The translations under genes were made by a program, and so were the position numbers. A DNA stretch of 64,000 nt. Origin: a virus. Numbering within the stretch: the stretch's first letter is position 1; each line of letters starts with the position of its first letter. Under the pieces are notes generated by a model. It made no database searches. It was not told where the DNA came from and worked only from the letters and a program-made list of their open reading frames with translations. Positions 12,937 to 28,416 of the stretch are shown here, in pieces. Where the stretch lies: the IMG/VR virus record IMGVR_UViG_3300028800_000059, positions 113,319 through 177,318 of that record; one strand, given 5' to 3'.

Positions 12937-14526
12937 TCATAAATGGCTCCCCTTTAAATCGACGTTGTAAATTTTGTAAGGAAACTGTTCGCCATCATAT
13001 ATATCCACCCGTTCCAAGAAATGAGAGAGTGTATGATTAGGCGTACCAGGATTTCCTTGTTTATCATTAATTCTTAGATCATCGGTAATATCGTAAATTT
13101 TAAGTGTCTTGTCGTCTCCGAAAAGTCTAAGGCCACGGCCGATGGCCTGTCTCATTCTAATTCGACTTTTAAAGGCTGTGGCGAAAATGATATTGTGTAG
13201 ATTCTTGATGTTGATGCCCGTCGCAAATGTTCCATAGGATGCCAGGACTACACCATTTTCATCCTTTTCAATTTCGCCACGATATTTATTTCTTAGATCG
13301 GTATCAATGTCTCCATCCACATAATACAATGTACGCCAAGGTTCAAGTTTTTCTTTGAACATTTCTTCCAAAATACGTCCCTGTTTCTCCTTCAGATGAA
13401 AAAGAATCAAGGTGTTTTCTTTCATTGACAACCCAAGGTTGACAATGAAATTATTTCGAGCCTGACTGCCTACAAGAAATTTGATTTCTTGATCATATTG
13501 AACTGATTTATGTCCATTCAATCTGGCAATGTCTTTTAGTCCTTTGGCTACTGTCTGTGGATGAACTAGAACAATGCCTTTGATTTTTAGATTGGACAAT
13601 ACTTTTTGATCAATCAGGTCTTTCGTAAATACTTCTTGTATTGCCAGACCATGTAGACCTTCAATAATCCATTTATTAACCTTGTAGTCATCCAGAGTTC
13701 CTGTCATTCCTATACGATATTTTGCATTGATCATATTCGATAAAATGTATATAATGCTTTTTGCTTTGGCACCGTGGGCTTCGTCCGTAATCACATAATC
13801 AAATTGTTCCAACCATTCTTTAGATTGTGCGACGGCTGTTTGCCAGGTAGAAATTACTATATGTGCTTTGGTATTTGGGTCGCGGCCTTCATATAATCTA
13901 AAGGTGTCAGCAGTATAAAGATATGCCTTACCAGAATAATCATTGAAATCTTCATATAGTTGTTCTACTAACGTGGTAGTAGGTACAATAATCAATCCTT
14001 TTTTGCCTTCTTGTTTGTGCCATAACCATGAGACAATCAGATAGGCAATCAAACTCTTTCCACCACCAGTAGGAAATATAATAGTGCGGCGTTTATCACG
14101 AATTGCCTTGGCGAACTCTTTTATTTGATCGTCTCGAACAGTTATTTTTTCGCCTTTGGCTCCACGAATATCTAAAGACTCCACGAATGTCTTGGCCTCG
14201 GCCAATGAAAATTCAGTAGTGAGGTTCGCAGGATTTCTTTTATCATAGGTCACATTGTATCCGCGATCTTTCGCGAACTCTTCAATATGAGGAACAAGTC
14301 CCGCATACAACAAAGAAGTCTTGGCATGTAGAAGTCTGATTTTTCCGTCCCATTGCTTGGCTCTGACGCGAGGATCGAAATGCATTTTAGGAACATCGAA
14401 TGTGAAATGGTCTCTAAGTTCCATGAGAACTCCCATTTCAGCGGCCACATGTATCCAGGCTTCGTTTATTTTTGTGACGTGGATATTGTTATAATCCGTG
14501 CCCATTGGTAAATTTCTGCCAATCAA
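12937..14526 (-). CDS. uvsW: SF2 DNA/RNA helicase UvsW
   Basis: WDGKIRL, PTGGGKS, DEAH, GMTGTL, RQAIGRGLR. Confidence 0.96.
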   Translation of the reverse strand: MIGRNLPMGTDYNNIHVTKINEAWIHVAAEMGVLMELRDHFTFDVPKMHFDPRVRAKQWDGKIRLLHAKTSLLYAGLVPHIEEFAKDRGYNVTYDKRNPANLTTEFSLAEAKTFVESLDIRGAKGEKITVRDDQIKEFAKAIRDKRRTIIFPTGGGKSLIAYLIVSWLWHKQEGKKGLIIVPTTTLVEQLYEDFNDYSGKAYLYTADTFRLYEGRDPNTKAHIVISTWQTAVAQSKEWLEQFDYVITDEAHGAKAKSIIYILSNMINAKYRIGMTGTLDDYKVNKWIIEGLHGLAIQEVFTKDLIDQKVLSNLKIKGIVLVHPQTVAKGLKDIARLNGHKSVQYDQEIKFLVGSQARNNFIVNLGLSMKENTLILFHLKEKQGRILEEMFKEKLEPWRTLYYVDGDIDTDLRNKYRGEIEKDENGVVLASYGTFATGINIKNLHNIIFATAFKSRIRMRQAIGRGLRLFGDDKTLKIYDITDDLRINDKQGNPGTPNHTLSHFLERVDIYDGEQFPYKIYNVDLKGSHL

Positions 14527-14935
14527 TAATGCTTCTTATTCCCCAATGCCTTTGGGAAATTTCCTTTATAATTCGGTCAAGACTATTCACTGCCAGATCA
14601 TGATAATCGCGCCTTATTTCTATTTTGGCGATTTCTTCATCACCATCGATAAAATCTTCGGCTTTCGGATCGGATAATTTCAATTGGAAAGGTTCCCATC
14701 CAAGCGAAGTCAATTCTTCGCGAGACAAAGCGCCTTTGACCCATTTCCATTTGTTGACGCGCAGCCGCTTTAAATCAAAAGCTGCCTTGGATGCGCCTTT
14801 TTTATGGGCAACATAATATTTCAGATATTTTGAATGAAGCTTTCCAGTACGAGTTTCTTCCCGCGCTGGCTCAGTTTCATCCAAAGATGAATCTGTTTCC
14901 CATTCTTCCAGAATGTCTTCTAGTGTTTTTATCAT
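14489..14935 (-). CDS. uvsY: recombination mediator UvsY
   Basis: LHSKYL…GWEPFQLK…IDGDEEI…I…R.W.IRSIIDWQKFTNG; adjacent to uvsW. Confidence 0.92.
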   Translation of the reverse strand: MIKTLEDILEEWETDSSLDETEPAREETRTGKLHSKYLKYYVAHKKGASKAAFDLKRLRVNKWKWVKGALSREELTSLGWEPFQLKLSDPKAEDFIDGDEEIAKIEIRRDYHDLAVNSLDRIIKEISQRHWGIRSIIDWQKFTNGHGL

Positions 14936-18900: not shown

Positions 18901-20244
18901 TTACATGAGATTGCGAACCCTGAAGATTCGGTAGTAGATGTTAGCCTGACCAGCGGTGTTACGATCACCAACTACGCCGTCGCCGTTTGTAGTTGCGAAA
19001 GGATTGGCAACCATGCCGTATCGTGTCTTGAAACCGATACGTGGCTGGAAGGTATCCTGACCAACGGCACGTACCATCTGTAGTGGGACGTATGGACAGT
19101 AGAAGATACCAGCGTCATAAGGAGAAGTTCCCTTGTAACCAACCAGTGCTAGTTCGTCGCCGCTTGAAGAACCACCGAAGTATGGATCGATGTAAACTTT
19201 TACGCGACCACCGTGCATTGTACCAGCGAAGGTGTTGCCAGTGTCGTCAACGGATAGATTTGCATCCAGGTTTGGAGTGTACGTTAGAATTCCAGTCATG
19301 GACATTGCCGATGCTACGTCCGAAGAAACTAGAATAACGTTACCCTTGCCTCGACGTGTTGCTTTTGCAATAGCGTTGGCTTCACGTTCGATCTGGAAAA
19401 TCAGACCCTTGAACTTTTCACCCATCCAACGACCATTTGCGTCGGTGTCAAGGTCGAAAGTACCAGAGGTGGTTGTGCCGTAGGTGCAACCAACAGTTGC
19501 CGTACGATAGATTGTACGAATAACTTCACGATTGATTTCGGCAAGAACTTCTGTGGACAGAATGTTTGCCAATTCAGTTTCAGCGTCAAGACCATGAATA
19601 GCCTTCAAGTCTTGTGCCAATTCCATCGAGTATTCAGCCTTCAATGCTCGGCTACGTGCTGTTACAGTGACCTTGTCGATCTTGAATGCCATTTCAGCAA
19701 ACAGGTTTGCGCCAGTGTCTCCCAATGCTTCGGCAGATGCCGTGGACATTGCGTTACCAGTCGTATAGGCAATTGAGTTTGCAGTATTGATAACTGGGTC
19801 AGTACCAGTGTTGGTTAACTGGACGCCGGCTGTGTTACCTGCCTTGTTGCTGGAGGAGAAAGTCGTATCAGCTTCGTTGAACAACGCTTCTGTTCCACCC
19901 TGAGTTGAATAAGTGGAACGCATTGCGAAGATAAGCCCTGTTGGACCTGTCATTGGCTGAACGCCGCAAACATCATACGCAATCAAATTTGGTAGAGCGC
20001 GACGAACCAATGAAATCAGGATTGGATCGTAGTTGTTGATCGATGCACCAGTTGAGTTCGTTGGTGCCGATTCAGACAACATGTTTGGACGGGAGAAAAT
20101 ATCATTTTCTGTTGCCAAAACCTGGGTCTGGGTTTCCATGCAGAGTGCGGTGACCGCTCTCTTGTATGGGTCCTTGATCTTTGGTAGTGCTGGATGATCC
20201 AGAATTCCGGCCCATTTCTTTTCGATTGCTTCGTTAAGTAACAT
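18901..20244 (-). CDS. gp23: major capsid protein
   Basis: DPILISLVRR, GVQPMTGPTGLIFAMR, RALKAEYSMELAQDLKAIHGLDAETEL, FYCPYVPL, FQPRIGFKTRYG. Confidence 0.99.
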   Translation of the reverse strand: MLLNEAIEKKWAGILDHPALPKIKDPYKRAVTALCMETQTQVLATENDIFSRPNMLSESAPTNSTGASINNYDPILISLVRRALPNLIAYDVCGVQPMTGPTGLIFAMRSTYSTQGGTEALFNEADTTFSSSNKAGNTAGVQLTNTGTDPVINTANSIAYTTGNAMSTASAEALGDTGANLFAEMAFKIDKVTVTARSRALKAEYSMELAQDLKAIHGLDAETELANILSTEVLAEINREVIRTIYRTATVGCTYGTTTSGTFDLDTDANGRWMGEKFKGLIFQIEREANAIAKATRRGKGNVILVSSDVASAMSMTGILTYTPNLDANLSVDDTGNTFAGTMHGGRVKVYIDPYFGGSSSGDELALVGYKGTSPYDAGIFYCPYVPLQMVRAVGQDTFQPRIGFKTRYGMVANPFATTNGDGVVGDRNTAGQANIYYRIFRVRNLM

Positions 20245-20309: not shown

Positions 20310-21494
20310 TTATTTCTTGAAACGATCTAGGAACGCAAGTGTTGACTGCATTTCTGGGTCAACCTTGTCGTGGTTGGTATTATCTTCGGCAAGCATTTTT
20401 GCATTTTCTGGATCGCCAGCGTCTCTTGCGGCATCATCCAATTCTGCGCTAACGTTTGTCTTGTTGGCTGGGAAATAACTTTCCTTTAGAACTTCAAGCT
20501 TGGTTGCGAATTCTTCGTCGGTTGTGAATTCAGTTCCTTCGGCTAGCTGATAAACTTTTGCTGCCTGTACGTCAGTTAATTCCTTACAAGATTCCTTGAT
20601 GATAAGAACTTTCTTGACTTCGTTAAGTTCTTTCTTGGTATCGATCCCGCGCTGAATTTCTTCATTCAACTTGGTTTCCAATTCGTCAGCCTTGGCTGCC
20701 AATTCTTCGACAACATCAACCTTGTCTTCTGGAATGTCGATGTAGTGTTCGGCAAATAGTTTCTTTAGACCGGCCATGAAATCTTCGGTCAATTCTGTGC
20801 GGATGCCAGCTTCTACGGCGAGTTCATTGTCGGCAACCCACTGTTCGGCAACATAGCCCATATAATCATTGACTTTGTTTTCTAGGTCTTCACGAATAAC
20901 AGCCACAGCATCAGATAGTTCCTGTTGAGTCTGTTTGCGAAGAATTGTATAGGCTTCGGTTACGCGAGCGATAACGGCCGCTTCGAAAATTGTTTCGGCG
21001 CGGGTTTTGAATTCTTCGGATAGATCATCCTGGCCAGCCAATAGAGCATCAACATCTTCCTTGATGGCATCTTTCTTGACAACCTTCTTGATCAATTCCT
21101 TGTCTTCTTCTTCGTCATTGTGACCTTCAGTAATTTCATCGGCTTCGACAACGCGGGACTGCATTCCATGTTCGGAACCAGTATCACCAGACTGAGAATG
21201 TGTGCCGTCTACAAGCGATTCGGCACCTTCTTCGCTGTTTCCGTTACCAAACTGGTTTCCTGGATAAACGTGACGTGGTTCGTTTCCTACTGGAGGAGTT
21301 GCACCTGGAGGAGTTGCTGTTGGTGCACCGTGAGTTGCGGCCTGAGCCTTGTCGGCTGGATGACTTGGTGTTGGGCCACCAATTTCAGCTTCACCGTCCT
21401 GTGACAATTTCTTTGGCTTGTCTTCCTTGCCCTGTGCGGTATGAACAGAAGCGTTTAGAATGTCGGCTGCATCTTCTAGAAGTGTTCTTGCCAT
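20310..21494 (-). CDS. gp22: prohead core scaffold protein
   Basis: LSEEFKTRAETIFEAAV…VNDYMGYVAEQWV…ELAVEAGIRTELTEDFM.GLK.LF.EHYIDIPEDK. Confidence 0.95.
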   Translation of the reverse strand: MARTLLEDAADILNASVHTAQGKEDKPKKLSQDGEAEIGGPTPSHPADKAQAATHGAPTATPPGATPPVGNEPRHVYPGNQFGNGNSEEGAESLVDGTHSQSGDTGSEHGMQSRVVEADEITEGHNDEEEDKELIKKVVKKDAIKEDVDALLAGQDDLSEEFKTRAETIFEAAVIARVTEAYTILRKQTQQELSDAVAVIREDLENKVNDYMGYVAEQWVADNELAVEAGIRTELTEDFMAGLKKLFAEHYIDIPEDKVDVVEELAAKADELETKLNEEIQRGIDTKKELNEVKKVLIIKESCKELTDVQAAKVYQLAEGTEFTTDEEFATKLEVLKESYFPANKTNVSAELDDAARDAGDPENAKMLAEDNTNHDKVDPEMQSTLAFLDRFKK

Positions 21495-21536: not shown

Positions 21537-21544
21537 TATTTATA
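21537..21544 (-). promoter_or_regulatory. late promoter of gp22
   Basis: TATAAATA overlapping the gp21 stop codon. Confidence 0.82.
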
Positions 21545-22199
21545 CTTTTGATAACTTTGAGAAAAACGCATCCATTACTTTAATAGCGCGAGTTTCATAG
21601 TCTTTTTGATTTTTAGACTCGTTCAAATACTTGACGGCCTTGGATTGACTTGCTGGCAACCATTGCTTGTTTTCATAGACCCATTCGGCGCCTTCGTAAA
21701 TGCCATTGACAAAGGCATCCGGGGCGGATGGATCGATTACGATATCGGCTGCTGTCATTAGGCGAAGGTCTGGTTGGACTATCGAGGCACCATTTGATTC
21801 TTTCAGCGAACCAAGAGCCCGGGAAGAAGCTGCAAGTTGGCCACCGTCATTTAGGATTGCGCGAACGATATTACCCTGTGGAGTTGTTCCAATTTTGGCT
21901 TTGCCAATCCAGTTGTCGCCGTCTTCTTTCAAAGAAGTGATACGGTGGGAAATTCTATCTTCATTGATTTTTGGTGTGTCTGGATGCCCTAGTTCGCCGT
22001 AGGCACGATTACGATTTACGTATTGCGTGATATAACGGGCACATTCATTTCGCAACGTTTCTTTTGGATAGATACGGCCATTCTTATTGAGTTTATTGGC
22101 CTGCATGAAAATGCCGTGGATGTAGTAATCCTTGCCTCCTGTTGAAGTGGCTTCGGTTAGGACTTCGAATTCTTGAATATCTTCTTTGATTAATAACAT
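21540..22199 (-). CDS. gp21: prohead protease
   Basis: GIFMQA…NKNGRIYP…AYGELGHP…SHRI…ASSRALGSL…ADIVIDPSAPDAFVNGIYE. Confidence 0.97.
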   Translation of the reverse strand: MLLIKEDIQEFEVLTEATSTGGKDYYIHGIFMQANKLNKNGRIYPKETLRNECARYITQYVNRNRAYGELGHPDTPKINEDRISHRITSLKEDGDNWIGKAKIGTTPQGNIVRAILNDGGQLAASSRALGSLKESNGASIVQPDLRLMTAADIVIDPSAPDAFVNGIYEGAEWVYENKQWLPASQSKAVKYLNESKNQKDYETRAIKVMDAFFSKLSKV

Positions 22200-22210
22200 A
22201 GTGGTATTAT

Positions 22211-22837
22211 TTATTCTTTCGCAGTTGCAGGACCGTGGTGTTTTAGGATTGCATTTTTCAAATCTTCATAGGCACTTGCATGTTGACTAGGTATTTGTGT
22301 TAGACGGAGAGTGCCTGATTTTTTTGATTGCGCCATTTTTTCAACATAATTATGTAAATGTTTATCAACTTCTGGATGAAGTCCATTATAATGTCTAGTA
22401 TCGTCTCCAGGAATCATGACCTTAACTGGTCCTCGTTTCCCAGCAATTGTATAGGAAGGAGTATGCGTTGGATGTGCTTCGATTCCTGCTTGATGAATTC
22501 CTGCACGTCCTGGATTATCGAAAGATCGACCATCGGAAGTCTTGAAACGATTTTCCCATTCGACATTGCGCCGACCTGGACCGGCTTCATTCAAAGAAGA
22601 TTCATTATAGGTTTTGCGTTTTCCTGTGCCTTTGCAAATTTCACATGTAATGGTTTTCTTCGGTCTTGTGTCGGGGCCTCCTCCACCATATGGTAAATGA
22701 ACTTGATATTTTCCTTTACCATTACATTTAGAACATGTCTTGTTTTTTTCATCTTCACCTTTAAGAAATTTATCATGGGCTCGCGCATTATCGCGTCCTG
22801 GAGACATTTCTGTTATATAAGTCTTGAATGATTTCAT
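22211..22837 (-). CDS. putative internal head protein with a capsid-targeting-like N-terminus and a CxxCxGxG zinc finger
   Basis: MKSFKTYITE resembles the T4 IP CTS MKTYQEFIAE; CSKCNGKG…CEICKGTG. Confidence 0.65.
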   Translation of the reverse strand: MKSFKTYITEMSPGRDNARAHDKFLKGEDEKNKTCSKCNGKGKYQVHLPYGGGGPDTRPKKTITCEICKGTGKRKTYNESSLNEAGPGRRNVEWENRFKTSDGRSFDNPGRAGIHQAGIEAHPTHTPSYTIAGKRGPVKVMIPGDDTRHYNGLHPEVDKHLHNYVEKMAQSKKSGTLRLTQIPSQHASAYEDLKNAILKHHGPATAKE

Positions 22838-23337
22838 GCTCGCAGCCCTAGTGCCTTTCTTTTCCGTAGTGACCTTTTCAAGGCCATTCTTGTTCTACTT
22901 CTTTTTGATTTTCTTTTTCGGACGGCCTTTCGAGCGCCCATTTTTCTAGCCCGTCTTTCAGCCGAACTCATTCTAACTAATCGTCCACCGCGTAACGTAT
23001 AACCTTTCACATTCGATAATCTTTTTCGGCGCTGGATTTTTCCACGGCGAATTCGAATTCTAATGATCTTGATCCGTGGAGCCTCTTCTAGATTTTCTTC
23101 TTTTCTCAAGGCTGGTTCACGATAATCTATAGTTTCATCATATTCAGGATCACTCATTCCAAAGGAATCTTCGTCCACAACATATTTCTTTGCCGAGTAG
23201 GCCTTCTTGGCTTCTTCGACCTTTTTGGCACAAATCTTTTTTATCTGTTCTTTAAATTCTTCACCAAGTCGAACGCGATTTCCCGTAATGATATGGTCAA
23301 GAAGTTTTTTATTATTGAGACCCGACACCAGTACCAC
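22834..23337 (-). CDS. gp68: prohead core protein (gp68-like, with a gp67-like N-terminal helix)
   Basis: Arg/Lys-rich IRIRIRRGKIQRRK…GYTLRGGRLVRMS..ERR.RK…ALKRSLRKR; position upstream of gp21. Confidence 0.75.
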   Translation of the reverse strand: MVLVSGLNNKKLLDHIITGNRVRLGEEFKEQIKKICAKKVEEAKKAYSAKKYVVDEDSFGMSDPEYDETIDYREPALRKEENLEEAPRIKIIRIRIRRGKIQRRKRLSNVKGYTLRGGRLVRMSSAERRARKMGARKAVRKRKSKRSRTRMALKRSLRKRKALGLRA

Positions 23338-23884
23338 CCCGAGGTGATCTTACTCCGGCGTTGAATGCCATAGGATCGGCTGTCTGGCCCATGTCATAAT
23401 CTGTTCCAATCCACTGACCAGTCTTTCGGCCTTCAATGATTACTGTATAACCAGTGTTGGCAACCATGCCCAATGTCTGCAATCCAATATCGCCTTTTGT
23501 ATTGGCGGCCGGAAGATTGTTTTTGAATACATCCACATCCGAAGCAGATTCGAACAAGGCGGTACCAAGACCAGCGGCCACGATTGTTGCATTTGCTACG
23601 TTGGTTGGATCAGTCGAGGCCCAGAATATAATTACTTCACCAGCAAGACCGTTTACAGTAATATTAATACGTTTGATTGTTGTCCGATATGTGGACAAGT
23701 AAACACTGTTAGCGTTGCCGGCAGCAATCAAACCATTGGTGTCCAATGCACCCTGTAGATTAGCGACATGAATTTTTGTATTTGATGTTTCCTGCCCGTT
23801 TGCACCATCAAATCGTCCGATAAGTTTGATTACAAATCGACGTGAATTGTCTTCTAATGTTTGAGTTTCGAATATGTTTGCCAT
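23312..23884 (-). CDS. conserved head-cluster virion protein
   Basis: QTLEDNSRRFVIKLIG…G….TKI..ANLQG…GDI…Y.VIIE.RK. Confidence 0.65.
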   Translation of the reverse strand: MANIFETQTLEDNSRRFVIKLIGRFDGANGQETSNTKIHVANLQGALDTNGLIAAGNANSVYLSTYRTTIKRINITVNGLAGEVIIFWASTDPTNVANATIVAAGLGTALFESASDVDVFKNNLPAANTKGDIGLQTLGMVANTGYTVIIEGRKTGQWIGTDYDMGQTADPMAFNAGVRSPRGGTGVGSQ

Positions 23885-23901
23885 GGGTTATCCTCTTCGT
23901 C

Positions 23902-24204
23902 TTATTTAGATTTTAGGCTGGTTATAATTTTGGAAACCCTGGTAGATTCAGGCTTATAGGATTCACTTACCGTAGAAATATCATCGTCTTTACCCGACAC
24001 GTTATATGGTACCGAAATATATTTGTCAATTGCGGTTATGTAATAAAGAGCAATTCGTTTTCCTTGAGGAAATGTCCGAATTGCTGTTCGCCGCATTATA
24101 AGGGTTGGTGGAGGATCGCGGTGTGACGTTGATGGTGTGTTATCATCGTCCTTCTCGTTGGCGCTCTCCACCAATTCTGATTTGAATACTTCAAGGGTTT
24201 TCAT
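23902..24204 (-). CDS. conserved head-cluster protein with a CTS-like N-terminus
   Basis: MKTLEVFKSELVE start; DPPPTLIMRRTAIRTFP.GKRIALYY…KY.SVPY. Confidence 0.65.
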   Translation of the reverse strand: MKTLEVFKSELVESANEKDDDNTPSTSHRDPPPTLIMRRTAIRTFPQGKRIALYYITAIDKYISVPYNVSGKDDDISTVSESYKPESTRVSKIITSLKSK

Positions 24205-25619
24205 TAGGCAATCCTAAATGCTTCCCCGTGTTTTGGATTATCTAATTTGTGTCTTTCGATAGGTGCTGTTGTTGGATGTCTTTTTCTATGACCAAGAATA
24301 GTCGAAGCATCATTCACTTGATCCAAATATTTTGCTTCGGCCTTTGGATCGTGACTTTGTACGGCCTTGGCTGCTTCTCCAGCATCCTTGATGATATAAT
24401 GCAATTCAGCATCAGATTTTTTATGATACGGGTGATGTAGAAGGGGAGTGGAATAACGCGCTTCCTTTAAGGCATGTTTTTTAGCCGACTCTTCATTTGT
24501 AAAGAATCCTAATTTACCTTTTTTGTTTTTGGCCGTCCAAAGAGGCTGGGAATGTGGATGAATCTTTGGTGCTTCTTTATATTCACCAGGCTTTAATTCG
24601 CTCTTGGTTTTGTAATTGATCTTAGAATCTTCGCTGAGTCTATCCGTAGCCTTGGAAATTCCACGGAGTCTCTTTTCGGTTCGGTCATGTTCTTTATTGG
24701 CCAATGTTGGTCTTCCGGCCGTGTGCATCCCGGCCCGCGTTGCGCTCATTTGAATATCAGCCGCAGCACGTTTTACATATGAGCCAAGAGTCTTCTTTGA
24801 AAGCTCGGTTAGAACCGCTTCGCCTAGTTTTACTTTTCCAGACCCGGCACAATTTTTGCAGGTTACATCGCCCATTTCTACTTCGCCTTTTTTATTGCTA
24901 GAAAAGGCATGTGTTTTTCCTGTACCCTGACATGGCCGACAAGTTCCCATAGTTGGCTTTAACATGGACTCAACAACATATTCCTTGAATGATTTTAGAG
25001 CCTTTTGTTTTCCGGTTCCTTCACATGTTTTGCAAAGATAGGCTCTTGGTCCATATATCTTATCGCCTCTTCTACCAGTTCCCTTGCAATCAGGACATTC
25101 TTTTTTATTTTCTTCTTTGCCGCTACTTTCTCCAATGCGATATGGACCAGAATGATGAAAATGATGTGCCCAGGCATTGCCTTCGGTCTTTCGGACCATA
25201 TGTTCTGGAACCTTGGCTGATTCGTAGTCGCCATGATCAATCACAACAAAAGGAGAACCATGTGGATCGCCTTTATCGTGTCGCACAACCAGACCGCTTT
25301 TCATTTTTCCTTTGTGCGGGAAGCTTACTTTGTCGCCAGGGTTGAAAGATTCTCCAAATGCCCGATCACCATCACCATTGTTGGCCTTGATATCGCCCGT
25401 GTTTGTTGCTGGCTGGGCATCATCCATTAGCGATGTTTTCTTTGCATAGCTTTTTGTTGGATCAAGTTTTAGTTGTGGCGCTGGTTTCTCAGGTTCTGGT
25501 GCCGCGGCTGGCTTTGAAGGCAGCGCACGATTGATGATAGCATGAAGCTGGGCGCTACGAATAACACCATCGCTTTCGGACAGAAATTGAGAAAGAGTTT
25601 TAGCCATTAGGAACTCCAA
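24204..25619 (-). CDS. modular putative internal head polyprotein (SH3/KOW-like module, two zinc fingers, helical modules)
   Basis: MAKTLSQFLSE N-terminus; internal LKSFKEYVVE; FNPGDKVSF…G.VV module; CPDCKGTG/CKTCEGTG and CRPCQGTG/CKNCAGSG; ELSKKTLGSYVKRA module; likely start at the ATG at 25607. Confidence 0.65.
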   Translation of the reverse strand: MEFLMAKTLSQFLSESDGVIRSAQLHAIINRALPSKPAAAPEPEKPAPQLKLDPTKSYAKKTSLMDDAQPATNTGDIKANNGDGDRAFGESFNPGDKVSFPHKGKMKSGLVVRHDKGDPHGSPFVVIDHGDYESAKVPEHMVRKTEGNAWAHHFHHSGPYRIGESSGKEENKKECPDCKGTGRRGDKIYGPRAYLCKTCEGTGKQKALKSFKEYVVESMLKPTMGTCRPCQGTGKTHAFSSNKKGEVEMGDVTCKNCAGSGKVKLGEAVLTELSKKTLGSYVKRAAADIQMSATRAGMHTAGRPTLANKEHDRTEKRLRGISKATDRLSEDSKINYKTKSELKPGEYKEAPKIHPHSQPLWTAKNKKGKLGFFTNEESAKKHALKEARYSTPLLHHPYHKKSDAELHYIIKDAGEAAKAVQSHDPKAEAKYLDQVNDASTILGHRKRHPTTAPIERHKLDNPKHGEAFRIA

Positions 25620-26500
25620 TATGCTTCGGATTCTGGACTTGCGTTATAACGTGCCTGGCGTTGATTAAAATCGTTTCTCCATTGTGATTTGTTCATGCCA
25701 GTGCCCTTACAAGATTTACATGATTCTATATCGACACCACTGGTATGAACTTTTCCAGTGCCATGACACGCCCGGCAGCCATATTTTACTTTCTTGTCGG
25801 CTGCTGGTGTATTCTTGGTTGCGGCTACGACATTTTTAGCTGCCTTTGTTGGTTCTGGCTCGCTCCAACTTACCTTAATTGCTTCGCCAAAAATCTTCCC
25901 GGCAACTTCGACGCGCTTTAGGAGTAGATTGTCCTTGACGTGGGCGCCAATTGCTCCCTGGAAGACCTCCGCGATTGCGGATGGGTTTTCCATGATTGCA
26001 AAATCAATAATCTGTGCTGCATTGGATGGGGTTTCGTTGTCTGTCATGTTTGTTTCCTTAATATGATTTCGGCCAAGTTTGCCTGATGCCTTTGATGATC
26101 CATAACCACGTCTTACTACATCACCCATCATTTTATCGTTGTTCAATTCACTGCCTTTTTCTCTGTGACGTAATGCTCGACGTTTCAATGTTTTATTTTG
26201 TCCTTTGGTTTTTTCATCCAAAGCAACTCCTTCAGCCATTTGAGTTGGATATAAATGATGAATGTATTTGCCGTGGATCATGTTCTGATATGGCCGGTGT
26301 CTATCTGGAAGAGAACCTTCCTTGTTCCGGGATCTAATGATTTTCTTGGTGTTGGCGTGTTCTTCTTCGGTTCCAAAATGTTTGGCGAGTAAGGCAATGT
26401 TTTCAGAATGATAGTTTTGATCCTCGTTTTTTTCGTATTCAGATTTGATTTTATCAATGGTGGCACCTTTTCGTGCTTCTTCTAATGTTTCTACAGTCAT
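25607..26500 (-). CDS. modular head protein containing a gp67-like segment and a zinc finger
   Basis: directly downstream of gp20; internal AAQIIDFAI…AEVFQGAIG..VKD.L..KRVEVAGKIF; CRACHGTG…CKSCKGTG. Confidence 0.6.
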   Translation of the reverse strand: MTVETLEEARKGATIDKIKSEYEKNEDQNYHSENIALLAKHFGTEEEHANTKKIIRSRNKEGSLPDRHRPYQNMIHGKYIHHLYPTQMAEGVALDEKTKGQNKTLKRRALRHREKGSELNNDKMMGDVVRRGYGSSKASGKLGRNHIKETNMTDNETPSNAAQIIDFAIMENPSAIAEVFQGAIGAHVKDNLLLKRVEVAGKIFGEAIKVSWSEPEPTKAAKNVVAATKNTPAADKKVKYGCRACHGTGKVHTSGVDIESCKSCKGTGMNKSQWRNDFNQRQARYNASPESEAYWSS

Positions 26501-26502
26501 GT

Positions 26503-28416
26503 TTATTTCCCTGGTTTCTTTGGTGCCGTGGTAACTTTATTTAGATTTCCCTGAGGTTTCTTTACTGGTAGTGATGCGTTTGATTGTTTCGCGGCTCCAC
26601 TATTCGCTCCTACATCGGCCGTCTTATCGTCAAACGGTGTTGGAGCATCGGCTGAACCTCCTACTGGCCGATCCGGAGTTTCTCCTTCTTCTGGAGGCAT
26701 ACCAGTTCCCATGCCACCTGGACCAAATCCAGCCGCCTTTTGTTCCTCCATCAATTCTTTTTCTTCTTCAATTTCTTTGTCAATTTGCTTGATTTCTTCT
26801 TCGTCTTGATGCAGGACGTTCTTACGAATCCATTGCTGTGAGTAATAAACTCCCTTGAATGGTTCGACCAGTGACAACACCGACAACCGATTCATCAGTA
26901 GTTCGGCTTCTTTCAACTCAGTGAAATTGTTGTCCTTTAAGAAGTCATAGTAAATATTTTCGCGAATTTGGCGCCATTCGGAAACTGAGCAAATACCCTT
27001 CAATGAAAGTTGAATTCGCATAGCTTCATCGAACACAGTCGCAAATCTATTTCTCAGACGAGTAATGAATTTGGAGAACTTAACTTCGTCTCGCGTAATT
27101 TCTGTGGTACGACCAAGACCCATACCACCATGTTCCTCGCCTTGTTCGACACGGCTATAAGGAACCGAAAGGGCCTTGTAGAGTTTCTTTTCGAAATACT
27201 TTACATCGGCCAATTCGCCTAGATTTTGTCCAGCCGGCAGAGTAGAAATTTCTGTGCCTTTTGAACCTTCACGGCGAGGCAACCAGAAGTCTTCCAACAT
27301 GGCCATGTATTTACGGTCGTTTCGAATTTCGCCAGTGTTGGCATCATAGACCAGTTTGTTTCTATACTTGGTCATTAGATCGCGAAGATATTGTTCGGCC
27401 TTGACCTTTGGAAGTGAACCAACATCCACATAGAAAATTCGCCGTTCTGGCGCACGAGACAACCGATAAATTACGATGGCGTCTTCGGTCATACGCAACT
27501 GATTAAGCGGCTTGATGGCCTTGTCAAGATAAGATAAAACAATTGCGCGGCGAGAGTCCATCAATCCAGATGCCACCGAAATAATGCTGTCGGTTGCAAT
27601 TCGAAGGCCTAGATTAGAATAGGCACCAATGACGCCGCGCTCGTTATAGACGTAGTATTCATTGACGGCTCGAATGATTTCGGCGCCGCTCTTTGGGTCT
27701 TTTGTTTTTTGGACTTCACGGACCTTACGGATACGTCTTGGATCAATGTAGCGAAGTTCCTTGATGCCAGCCTTTGGATTTGTTTCGTCCAAAATTACGT
27801 GGAAGAAAATTCGTCCATCGACATACCAGCGGCGAAACAGTTCATCGCCCATGTTAGAGAAATTCAAAAGCTTTAGAATAACGTCGAATTGCTCGTTGAT
27901 TTTTGTTTTGATGTTGTCTGGTTGTTCAAGGTTGTCCAACATCATTGTAACAGATTTGCCAGTTTCATCATGGACAATGGCTTCGTTTACAATGTCGTCA
28001 ATACAAGATTCGCATTCTGGCTGCCGCGCCATTTCACGATATTTCGTGATAAGTTTTACTTCGTCACGGACAATACCTTCAAGATCAACGAATGTGCCAT
28101 AGTAGGCACCTGATTGAATAACAACGGCACCGTCGTCATTGGATGGTAGCGCGAATGATTTTGTGTTTCCAGATGCAAGTGTATCCTGAGAAACAACTGT
28201 GTTTCCGCTCATGCCGGCTGGCTGAATTTGAAAGCCGAACATGTTGAAAAGAGATTCGTTTAGTTTTTGAATTTCCAGAGCCCGCTGGACAGGATTAGCA
28301 GTAGAAAGAGCCGGCCGAAACAATTCTGTGAGAGAATCGTTTGGTAGTGAAATGGTTTCTTTTAGACGGCTCTTTGTAGCAGCAGGACTCTTTTTCCGTT
28401 GCGTTGTTTTGGCCAT
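26503..28416 (-). CDS. gp20: portal vertex protein with N- and C-terminal extensions
   Basis: LFRRWYVDGRI, ELRYIDPRRI, YLDKAIKPLNQLRMTEDAIVIYRLSRAPERRIFYVDVG, EDFWLPRREG. Confidence 0.98.
   Translation of the reverse strand: MAKTTQRKKSPAATKSRLKETISLPNDSLTELFRPALSTANPVQRALEIQKLNESLFNMFGFQIQPAGMSGNTVVSQDTLASGNTKSFALPSNDDGAVVIQSGAYYGTFVDLEGIVRDEVKLITKYREMARQPECESCIDDIVNEAIVHDETGKSVTMMLDNLEQPDNIKTKINEQFDVILKLLNFSNMGDELFRRWYVDGRIFFHVILDETNPKAGIKELRYIDPRRIRKVREVQKTKDPKSGAEIIRAVNEYYVYNERGVIGAYSNLGLRIATDSIISVASGLMDSRRAIVLSYLDKAIKPLNQLRMTEDAIVIYRLSRAPERRIFYVDVGSLPKVKAEQYLRDLMTKYRNKLVYDANTGEIRNDRKYMAMLEDFWLPRREGSKGTEISTLPAGQNLGELADVKYFEKKLYKALSVPYSRVEQGEEHGGMGLGRTTEITRDEVKFSKFITRLRNRFATVFDEAMRIQLSLKGICSVSEWRQIRENIYYDFLKDNNFTELKEAELLMNRLSVLSLVEPFKGVYYSQQWIRKNVLHQDEEEIKQIDKEIEEEKELMEEQKAAGFGPGGMGTGMPPEEGETPDRPVGGSADAPTPFDDKTADVGANSGAAKQSNASLPVKKPQGNLNKVTTAPKKPGK

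Follow-up and report, generated by a model that had tools for sequence, protein, structure and literature searches.

In an uncultured T4-like phage of 177 kb, the interval between the genes for the portal (gp20) and the prohead protease (gp21) looks, on balance and judging by its sequence, like an expanded prohead-core cargo locus. Because its proteins combine a leader tag with shuffled modules and joints that bear the protease motif, the phage probably packs, cuts and delivers changeable small proteins. In the window (the whole stretch of 64,000 nucleotides analysed), the interval measures 4.3 kb, whereas 55 related contigs have a median of 1.2 kb, and it holds six genes: a gp67-like fusion (ORF A), three leader-tagged genes (ORFs B, C and F), an untagged, beta-rich gene (ORF D) and a gp68-like gene (ORF E). 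An earlier note on this DNA had described the region as an array of capsid-targeted polyproteins built by cassette shuffling. Every feature that it placed was found at its coordinates on the minus strand. Its array survives as six genes but not as a uniform set, as three of the six lack a leader, and the parts of its wider reading that stand, at the level of predicted proteins, are the T4-type leaders, the shuffling and the joints at module borders, to which comparison adds the placement in the prohead-core slot.

The interval is flanked by a T4-like portal, an S77 protease, a gp22-type scaffold and the MCP; its own genes and segments, like gp20, gp21 and the scaffold gene, all lie on the minus strand. 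The upstream boundary is the gp20 portal gene (26503 to 28416; PF07230 Portal_T4 2e-173, phrog_213). At the other end stands gp21 (21540 to 22199; PF03420 9e-33), the proposed cutting enzyme, which is 37% identical to T4 gp21 and keeps the GELxHP and SSRxLGSL motifs (His, Ser), with the scaffold gene beyond it (20310 to 21494; PF25623 1e-64). The interval genes are tightly packed in this head-gene string, with overlapping stop and start codons. A TATAAATA late promoter lies directly upstream of the scaffold gene (21537 to 21544), and the same element precedes gp23 and a leader gene at genome positions 64292 to 65206; none was found inside the gp20-gp21 interval.

Three of the interval proteins begin with T4-like leaders, and all three, as first pointed out in the earlier note, were confirmed: MAKTLSQFLSE in ORF B (ATG at 25607), MKTLEVFKSE in ORF C (24204) and MKSFKTYITE in ORF F (22837). 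The N-terminus of T4 ipII and ipIII, checked against the reference, is MKTYQEFIAE. In ORF B the leader spans residues 1 to 11 (25575 to 25607), ends in LSE and is predicted by AF2 to be helical at residues 2-11, while in ORF C the canonical site is LVE, three residues past MKTLEVFKSE. ORF B also contains the second copy that had been claimed, LKSFKEYVVE, at residues 204-213 (24969 to 24998), which has 12 bases, AAATCATTCAAG, in common with the start of ORF F. Since its Leu is encoded by CTA, this is not a start codon, and the copy marks the fused start of a former gene. The zinc-ribbon region around it has a paralogue in the N-terminal part of ORF F, and the copy is the only internal leader motif in the whole proteome. 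Outside the interval, the genome has four more genes with a leader besides ORFs B, C and F; of the 273 called genes, 6 have the motif within their first 7 residues, where shuffles predict 0.04. A strict DNA pattern for the leader gave three matches in T4, three in the L066 record and none in reversed controls, and among the 55 contigs, chosen by gp21 similarity alone, 25 of 125 interval ORFs carry the leader vs 3 of 480 outside (odds ratio ~40, p=2e-15). A strict leader-like N-terminus is also present on T4 gp61.1, which belongs to the DNA-primase (gene 61) region and is not known to be packaged, and a relaxed motif matches a 148-aa ORF at 14489 to 14935 that we take, by position only, to be UvsY.

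ORF A (25607 to 26500; 297 aa) has no leader; its modules at the N-terminus are followed by a gp67-like helix and, at the C-terminal end, by a zinc ribbon. Its residues 20-89 recur in two relatives (L037 and L039), and behind its IKE joint (residues 147-149) stands a vestigial Met (residue 152), which suggests a gene fusion. For the candidate gp67-like segment, residues 160-216 (25853 to 26023), hhalign with a profile built from 11 gp67 homologues, T4 gp67 among them, gave a probability of 65% (E 6e-5, 57 columns), and BLASTP against a gp67-like ORF of L156 gave 5e-5; the segment's position after gene 20 fits gp67, but it is internal to a 297-aa protein. The zinc ribbon, residues 237-277 (25670 to 25792), resembles the DnaJ CxxCxGxG type and matches PF00684 at 1e-4, below the curated cut-off, as well as several PHROG zinc-ribbon families. 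Four such motif pairs are present, one in ORF A, two in ORF B and one in ORF F, with PF00684 scores of 18-28 bits, under the 32.7-bit Pfam gathering threshold.

ORF B (24204 to 25607) is a leader-tagged chain of about seven modules, 467 aa long from the ATG at 25607 or 471 aa from an alternative TTG start at 25619, four codons upstream. Behind the leader comes a small module at residues 87-142 (25182 to 25349), called SH3-like in the earlier note. An IGE at residues 158-160 then precedes zinc ribbon 1 (residues 170-200, 25008 to 25100; PF00684 2.8e-6 over two stretches, below the cut-off). The internal leader separates this from zinc ribbon 2 (residues 222-258, 24834 to 24944), which has an LGE behind it at 261-263. 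There follow an LSKxTLxSY helical-hairpin module that comes after LTE and ends in LSE (residues 269-326, 24630 to 24803), a small basic module ending in LKE (residues 327-382, 24462 to 24629) and the YIIKDA helical hairpin, the most widely shared cassette (residues 383-446, 24270 to 24461). AF2 models the YIIKDA module at a pLDDT of 95-98 and the LSK module, whose alignment borders fall at 259-270 and 325-330, as helices at 263-295 and 300-336 (pLDDT ~80); its confidence is low over the putative SH3/KOW-like module and the N-terminal half of the protein.

ORF C (23902 to 24204; 100 aa) consists of a leader, the LVE and a module that is also found inside 456- and 671-aa interval proteins of relatives. 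ORF D (23312 to 23884; 190 aa), which is beta-rich, has neither leader nor joints and is 32% identical to an interval ORF of L021, lies within the range but is outside the cargo system. The gp68-like ORF E (22834 to 23337; 167 aa, from an uncertain GTG start) opens with a gp67-like helix, turns acidic in its middle, has its LEE joint at residues 83-85 and closes with a +35 basic tail. This basic C-terminal domain and the place near gene 21 are as in the gp68 family. It matches phrog_3503 at 3e-4, as does T4 gp68 at 2e-3, and the tail of L091_342 with 53% identity (E 5e-30); direct BLASTP of ORF E against T4 gp68 was not significant. ORF F (22211 to 22837; 208 aa) runs from its leader (22808 to 22837) through a zinc ribbon (about 22619 to 22735) and an LNE joint at residues 82-84 into an orphan 124-aa His-rich domain, and no near-length homologue of it was found. 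Pfam and PHROG searches returned no internal-protein family for the interval proteins and no recognised conflict domain (ART, MPTase, ParB-like or others) in ORFs A-F, and no assigned function was obtained for any module. A separate 650-aa protein encoded in the same genome has ART and zeta-kinase domains.

The shuffling of modules across phages, as had been proposed, is borne out by their recurrence in other orders and as stand-alone genes. The YIIKDA module is present in 897 representative proteins of 73 to 1445 aa at E<=1e-3 and in 80 viral loci, and there are stand-alone viral clusters too. In other phage proteins the residue 87-142 module lies C-terminal to YIIKDA, the reverse of the order in ORF B. 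Among relatives, a protein of L035 holds a gp67-like segment and modules spaced by a repeated, near-identical NESLEE linker, and the chains of L019 and L091 have gp68-like tails at their end.

The locus is, at the same time, the gp67/gp68 slot, and ORFs A and E carry gp67-like and gp68-like segments, as expected if the interval encoded disposable scaffold or core accessory proteins that build or size the prohead, are chopped and leave before the DNA enters, with no delivery to the host. In T4, gp67, gp68 and gp22 have such a part in building or sizing the prohead. T4 gp67 and gp68, which share this slot between genes 20 and 21, are both cut several times by gp21 and degraded to peptides thought to leave the head (PMC9958956), and multiple cuts are thought to help clearance in giant phages (PMC5694885). 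ORF A has a putative gp67-like helix and ORF E a gp68-like basic tail, but these segments, like those of relatives, are fused to extra conserved modules such as zinc ribbons and hairpins, whereas the T4 proteins lack cargo of this kind and are believed to lose their fragments from the head. Several findings speak against disposal. The modules are strongly conserved, at 55-80% identity across phages whose MCPs are ~55-64% identical, and they stand alone as genes in complete genomes without the S77 protease and a T4-like core. The slot of L091 and L021 holds an ADP-ribosyltransferase (PF03496), which in L091 begins with MKKYEEFIAE. The predicted fragments have a pI of 7-12, mostly >9, as in retained T4 internal proteins, with the acidic middle of ORF E (pI 4.8) as the exception; most leaders and linker pieces are acidic or close to neutral. 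Finally, most relatives make do with an interval of ~1.2 kb, which means that assembly does not depend on the additional 3 kb. Disposal as the main fate of these proteins is therefore rather unlikely.

All the tripeptides listed in the earlier note as module borders (FGE, IGE, VVE, LGE, LTE, LSE, LKE, LNE, LEE, LDE and IKE) are present, although as (L/I)xE sites FGE and VVE are non-canonical. The expected enrichment at borders holds: with the borders of ORF B defined by homology, from 321 alignments, 4 of its 5 internal [LI]xE sites lie <=5 residues from one (p about 0.002-0.01). Raw [LI]xE density in the interval is only ~1.4x that of other genes; the joint signal is the placement of the sites, not their number. 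An [LI]xE stands <=15 residues upstream of the YIIKDA module at 20 of 40 junctions, against a background of 0.13 (p=1e-8). In a database protein, the LKE of a leader is followed directly by a module. Ala follows the cut position at 21% of interval sites vs 8% in other genes. Directly before the LSK helix, [LIVM]xE is found in all 21 non-redundant copies elsewhere.

The chains and their joints also track the protease. In records that encode S77, the best-conserved module is preceded by an (L/I)xE site in 10 of 14 and lies in reading frames of 70-921 aa, 13 of the 14 inside chains of 224-921 aa. In six S77-negative records, each at least 88% complete, it is a lone reading frame of 60-168 aa, with the site in 0 of 6. 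These counts support a link between the S77 protease and the chain-plus-joint form.

Joints and protease bear in turn on whether the products might be polyvalent proteins, packaged and delivered intact, as has been suggested for many polyvalent proteins of phages, with at most the N-terminal leader removed. Virion-associated proteins with several domains are common, and some are packaged unprocessed, among them the N4 virion RNA polymerase (PMC5512222). In ORF B, moreover, AF2 puts LSE326 and LKE382 at helix ends and not in obviously flexible linkers, and the LxE that always precedes the LSK helix might just belong to that module. Like the polyvalent proteins of phages and conjugative elements described by Iyer et al. 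2017 (PMC5512222), whose domains are exchanged among elements and which are predicted to be carried along with the DNA, the chains here join at least two unrelated small domains in one polypeptide beside virion genes. Those proteins are, however, defined by known conflict domains and often have their own MPTase-type peptidase, whereas the window's chains have no recognised enzymatic conflict domain, and for them we propose that the head protease acts in trans at a fixed joint motif and that a T4-type leader does the loading. Intact delivery also sits poorly with the tie between the chain-plus-site form and S77, the near-identical NESLEE linkers between unrelated modules of L035, the enrichment of Ala behind the cut position, which known T4 cuts show too, and fossil leaders exactly at joints, and we judge it distinctly improbable. 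That the leaders reflect ordinary start-region composition and the xE sites ordinary Lys/Glu-rich helices or linkers, as the frequency of MK starts, the modest rise in [LI]xE density and the matches on the 148-aa ORF and T4 gp61.1 might suggest, is a reading already disfavoured and very improbable indeed, given six leaders against the 0.04 from shuffles, the ~40-fold interval enrichment in independent contigs, the empty reversed-pattern controls and a border coincidence and S77 association that speak against chance.

The cargo-locus reading places these genes closest to the internal proteins of T4. T4 IPs are unrelated to one another except for the tag. Since that tag is all they share, it is expected that no mature-part similarity of the interval proteins to IPI, IPII or IPIII was detected with Pfam or PHROG. 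In T4, the capsid-targeting sequence carries foreign proteins into heads, and gp21 trims the IPs and Alt while degrading gp22, gp67 and gp68 (PMC9958956, PMC3012670, PMC5694885). As with IPII, IPIII and Alt, an N-terminal peptide of ~10 residues follows the same pattern and ends in (L/I)xE, a gp21-type protease and a gp22-type scaffold are both encoded, and the mature parts are variable, unrelated and mostly basic, with relatives tagging an ADP-ribosyltransferase similarly. Unlike the T4 genes, which occupy a separate IP locus, those here lie in the gp20-gp21 slot and encode multi-module chains with internal candidate cut sites, where T4 IPs are single units with one cut. In the giant phages phiKZ, 201phi2-1 and SPN3US, too, a gp21-related protease cleaves many head proteins, inner-head and ejection proteins among them, at an x-x-E motif and frequently at more than one place, and propeptides conserved at the N-terminus serve as targeting signals (PMC5694885), but the giant-phage motif is (S/A/G)xE, the propeptides exceed 100 residues and the cargo consists of large proteins, not of chains of 50-150-residue cassettes. 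The system here would be a variant of the T4 internal-protein system.

We propose that the interval genes would be expressed late, together with the head genes, and that their products would enter the scaffold core, as it assembles, through either of two address elements, a T4-type capsid-targeting leader of 10-13 residues (ORFs B, C and F and the four genes elsewhere) or a core segment that resembles gp67 or gp68, as in ORFs A and E. After closure of the shell, the gp21-type S77 protease would take off the leaders and cleave some, if not all, of the internal (L/I)xE joints, frequently ahead of an Ala, freeing small basic modules (zinc ribbons, helical hairpins and the small putative module). 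These could remain with the DNA, like T4 internal proteins, and then enter the host alongside it. The chains may evolve by fusion of leader-plus-module cassettes, leaving fossil starts at ORF B residue 204 and ORF A residue 152, and by swapping cassettes with a small-module pool common to many phages. On the evidence of these gene products as predicted, packaging of the cargo proteins is very likely and removal of their leaders likely; cutting at internal joints is fairly probable, and delivery with a host-directed role is a tentative prediction.

More broadly, T4-like phages outside the T-even group may conceivably use an undescribed grammar for loading cargo, composed of an address element (the short T4-type leader or a gp67-like helix), a standard (L/I)xE-Ala joint that the S77 head protease would read and a shared pool of small mobile modules. 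If so, a simple gene fusion would suffice to add any module to the injected contents of the head, the chained form would be limited to phages with an S77 protease, and the released modules would act within the infection's first seconds, on the host itself or on its defences.

The window, the final 64 kb of one virus record 177,318 bp long, carries on the minus strand a T4-like head module comprising the gp20 portal (26503-28416), the gp21 S77 protease (21540-22199), a gp22-type scaffold (20310-21494) and the MCP (18901-20244). The MCP shares 59-64% identity with those of the pelagiphages Mosig and HTVC008M, Stenotrophomonas phage DLP_6, Melnitz and cyanomyoviruses, and only 34% with T4 gp23, while gp21 retains the GELxHP and SSRxLGSL motifs at 37% identity to its T4 counterpart. 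Six closely spaced genes with overlapping stop and start codons separate portal from protease. This interval measures 4.3 kb. In 55 viral contigs chosen solely for similarity to the window gp21, its counterpart has a median length of 1.24 kb and reaches 4.5 kb at most. A megablast search with the window interval found no match in 50,697 GenBank phage records.

All six interval genes lie on the minus strand. ORF A (297 aa) lacks a leader, the N-terminal T4-type capsid-targeting sequence of about ten residues, and contains a gp67-like segment and a zinc ribbon. ORF B (467 aa from the ATG at 25607) consists of a leader and a chain of about seven modules, and ORF C (100 aa) of a leader and one module. 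ORF D (190 aa, 23312-23884) is beta-rich, with neither leader nor joints, that is, the (L/I)xE tripeptides that are candidate gp21 cut sites between modules. ORF E (167 aa, 22834-23337) is gp68-like, and ORF F (208 aa) combines a leader, a zinc ribbon and an orphan domain. No homologues of comparable length were found for ORF A or ORF F.

Profile comparison by hhalign aligns ORF A residues 160-216 with gp67 homologues, T4 gp67 among them (probability 65%, E 6e-5), and the segment is also similar to a gp67-like ORF of a relative. About 150 residues are fused upstream of this segment via an IKE joint, which is followed by a fossil Met. The C-terminus of ORF E is a basic tail (+35) that matches phrog_3503, as does T4 gp68, and is 53% identical to the tail of a 342-aa protein from a related locus (L091); a direct BLASTP comparison of ORF E with T4 gp68 was not significant. 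Since ORF A is gp67-like and ORF E gp68-like, the interval appears to be the gp67/gp68 prohead-core slot, much enlarged. According to older reviews, cyanomyoviruses are without gp67 and gp68 (PMC1079782, PMC2984593); the remote gp67-like and gp68-like segments detected in that slot here would revise this picture for marine T4-like phages. ORF E lacks an ATG, and the GTG codons that could start it lie at most 26 nt inside the end of ORF D. At its N-terminus, 40 residues resemble a gp67-like helix, so the gp67-like and gp68-like proteins of the clade may share an N-terminal element. Most related loci have beta-rich ORFs in the position of ORF D, just before gp21 or gp68. The sole BLAST link of ORF D is to one such locus, L021 (32% identity), with none to the same-position beta-rich ORFs of cyanophage-like loci. 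Because tblastn did not find gp24, the second gp23 paralogue, in the genome, a vertex or decoration role for ORF D is conceivable.

The three leaders described in the earlier note are all present in the window, and the T4 peptide with which they were compared stands at the start of both ipII and ipIII. Defined as K-[ST]-[LFYW]-x-x-[FY]-x(2,3)-E within the first seven residues, the leader motif occurs on 6 of 273 called genes, compared with 0.04 expected from shuffled sequences, and is not due to chance. A second copy reported inside ORF B was located at residues 204-213, with the 12 shared nucleotides confirmed, and is the only internal occurrence in the proteome; this copy begins with a CTA codon, for which reason we rejected it as an internal start. 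Across the 55 gp21-selected contigs, 30 intervals contain a leader-bearing gene, typically beginning MKTFxELRxQLDE, and among non-redundant ORFs the leader marks 25 of the 125 in intervals and 3 of the 480 elsewhere (odds ratio ~40, p=2e-15). Stenotrophomonas phage DLP_6 and Methylophilales phage Melnitz likewise have leader-bearing interval genes. The pattern is not perfectly specific, since T4 gp61.1, a 54-aa hypothetical protein encoded in the DNA-primase (gene 61) region (NC_000866, 18966-19130), begins with MKTFKEFIKE and so carries its strict form.

Four further leader genes lie outside the window, two at genome positions 64045-65206 and one each at 73288-73701 and 1269-1478; one of the four encodes a module protein of 137 aa, which aligns to the middle part of a 740-residue PHROG profile. 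The pair at 64045-65206 adjoins a lysozyme-like gene and lies downstream of a TATAAATA late promoter. The ORF at 1269-1478, a seventh leader copy, is short, lies in a region dense in overlapping ORFs and may be truncated. In one compared locus (L066), two leader genes sit between gp21 and gp22 rather than in the portal-protease interval.

Every border tripeptide listed in the earlier note exists in the sequences, and its proposal that such sites fall at module borders is supported for [LI]xE sites. As raw [LI]xE density is a weak statistic, and at 1.3 versus 0.9 per 100 aa in other genes an unremarkable one, we turned to tests of site position. ORF B alignment borders, derived from 321 domain matches, cluster at residues 85-90, 139-144, 259-270, 325-330, 373-390 and 439-450. 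Its internal [LI]xE sites are at 160, 263, 268, 326 and 382, four of the five being within 5 residues of a border (binomial estimate, p 0.002-0.01). For the YIIKDA hairpin (ORF B residues 383-446), 20 of 40 non-redundant junctions have an [LI]xE at most 15 residues upstream, compared with a background of 0.13. A [LIVM]xE tripeptide directly precedes the LSK helix, another module of ORF B (residues 269-326), in 21 of 21 copies, where the LxE may be part of the module itself. Upstream of the sites in interval proteins, residues are hydrophilic or acidic, and Ala follows the site in 21% of cases, compared with 8% in other genes; known T4 cuts also precede Ala. The candidate maturation site of the MCP is LSE followed by SAPTN, and relatives keep (S/G)E-AAPTN.

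The most widely shared cassette, the YIIKDA helical hairpin that forms the last module of ORF B (AF2 pLDDT 95-98), matched 897 cluster representatives at E<=1e-3, at any position in proteins of 73-1445 aa, and also stands alone in viral proteins of 66-70 aa in a protein atlas. A small module (ORF B residues 87-142) accompanies the hairpin in these proteins, in reversed order, the LSK helix is present in up to seven copies in a single protein, and the ORF C module is found within 456- and 671-aa interval proteins of relatives. Judged by these sequence matches, module shuffling is real. No match to the YIIKDA module was obtained by tblastn against the 50,697 GenBank phage records, and a scan of viral contigs found no relative of ORF B as a whole; by these searches the modules are known only from metagenomes. 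Sequence searches of Pfam, PHROG and PDB assigned no function to any module. AF2 on a cleaned ORF B alignment, confident only for residues 263-336 and 371-443, places two of the sites at helix ends.

In records encoding an S77 protease, the reading frame that holds the hairpin spans 70-921 aa. For 13 of these 14 records the hairpin is part of a chain of 224-921 aa, and 10 of the 14 have a site ahead of it; a further two carry Met at P3 (MNE in L009 and, as the final residues of the leader, MSE in L066). In S77-negative records at least 88% complete, it occupies a reading frame of 60-168 aa, with a site in 0 of 6. The samples behind this association (10/14 versus 0/6) are small and partly redundant. 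One complete 100-kb phage without S77 (L059, 9920-10931) has a stand-alone hairpin gene, whose neighbours are an ADP-ribosylglycohydrolase-like gene and a head-maturation protease of another family; given the latter, the association with head genes may extend past T4-like phages.

Relatives join these elements in other ways. An L035 protein begins with a gp67-like N-terminus and continues with four modules split by near-identical NESLEE linkers, and in L019 and L091 the chains terminate in a gp68-like tail that follows LTE or LDE plus Ala. In L091 and L021 an ADP-ribosyltransferase opens the interval (PF03496, 1e-17 and 4e-16), the former with the N-terminus MKKYEEFIAE; both parallel T4 Alt, a packaged and injected enzyme. 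Elsewhere in our virus genome (70660-72612, minus strand), a zeta-toxin-type P-loop kinase (PF06414) and an ADP-ribosyltransferase (PF03496) are fused in one protein of 650 aa. Its gene has a TATAAATA late promoter 98 nt upstream and its N-terminus contains ILQE, which make it a candidate Alt-like packaged enzyme. A 140-aa interval ORF in L035 (11664-12086, plus strand) has the look, from an HSWG...D motif seen by eye, of a small zinc D-Ala-D-Ala or L-Ala-D-Glu peptidase; a cell-wall hydrolase amid prohead-core genes would be odd. In the related contigs L066 (2472-7426) and L147 (7025-8911), genes for fibre- or collagen-like proteins with Gly-x-x repeats (up to 746 aa) are inserted between portal and protease.

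The tagged, jointed modular proteins of the interval are a real feature, and the proposed mechanism of packaging, cutting and delivery is plausible. Cleavage at [LI]xE would yield fragments of about 53-149 residues with a pI mostly above 9 (range 7-12), like the basic T4 internal proteins; an exception is the acidic middle of ORF E (pI 4.8), and most of the predicted leaders and short linker pieces are acidic or close to neutral. The proposed system would work like the T4 IP/Alt system, in which capsid-targeting sequences mediate loading and gp21 trims (PMC3012670, PMC9958956); fragments of T4 gp67 and gp68 are thought to be expelled (PMC9958956). The proposed cutting also has a parallel in giant-phage ejection proteins, which are processed at multiple sites (PMC5694885), and the chain architecture is similar to that of polyvalent proteins (PMC5512222). 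Unlike all three, the window combines short T4-type tags, standard joints predicted to be cut in trans and strings of very small cassettes in the gp67/gp68 slot, a combination of which we found no description in the literature.

The arrangement hints at multi-protein packing in engineered T4-type capsids, and the modules are tractable candidate first-strike factors that can be screened against bacterial defence systems. If the proposed mechanism is right, these DNA phages would load a fast-changing set of small proteins into the head via protease-cut polyproteins, and the T4 capsid-targeting tag with gp21 processing would be an ancient, general loading system reaching far past the T-even phages.
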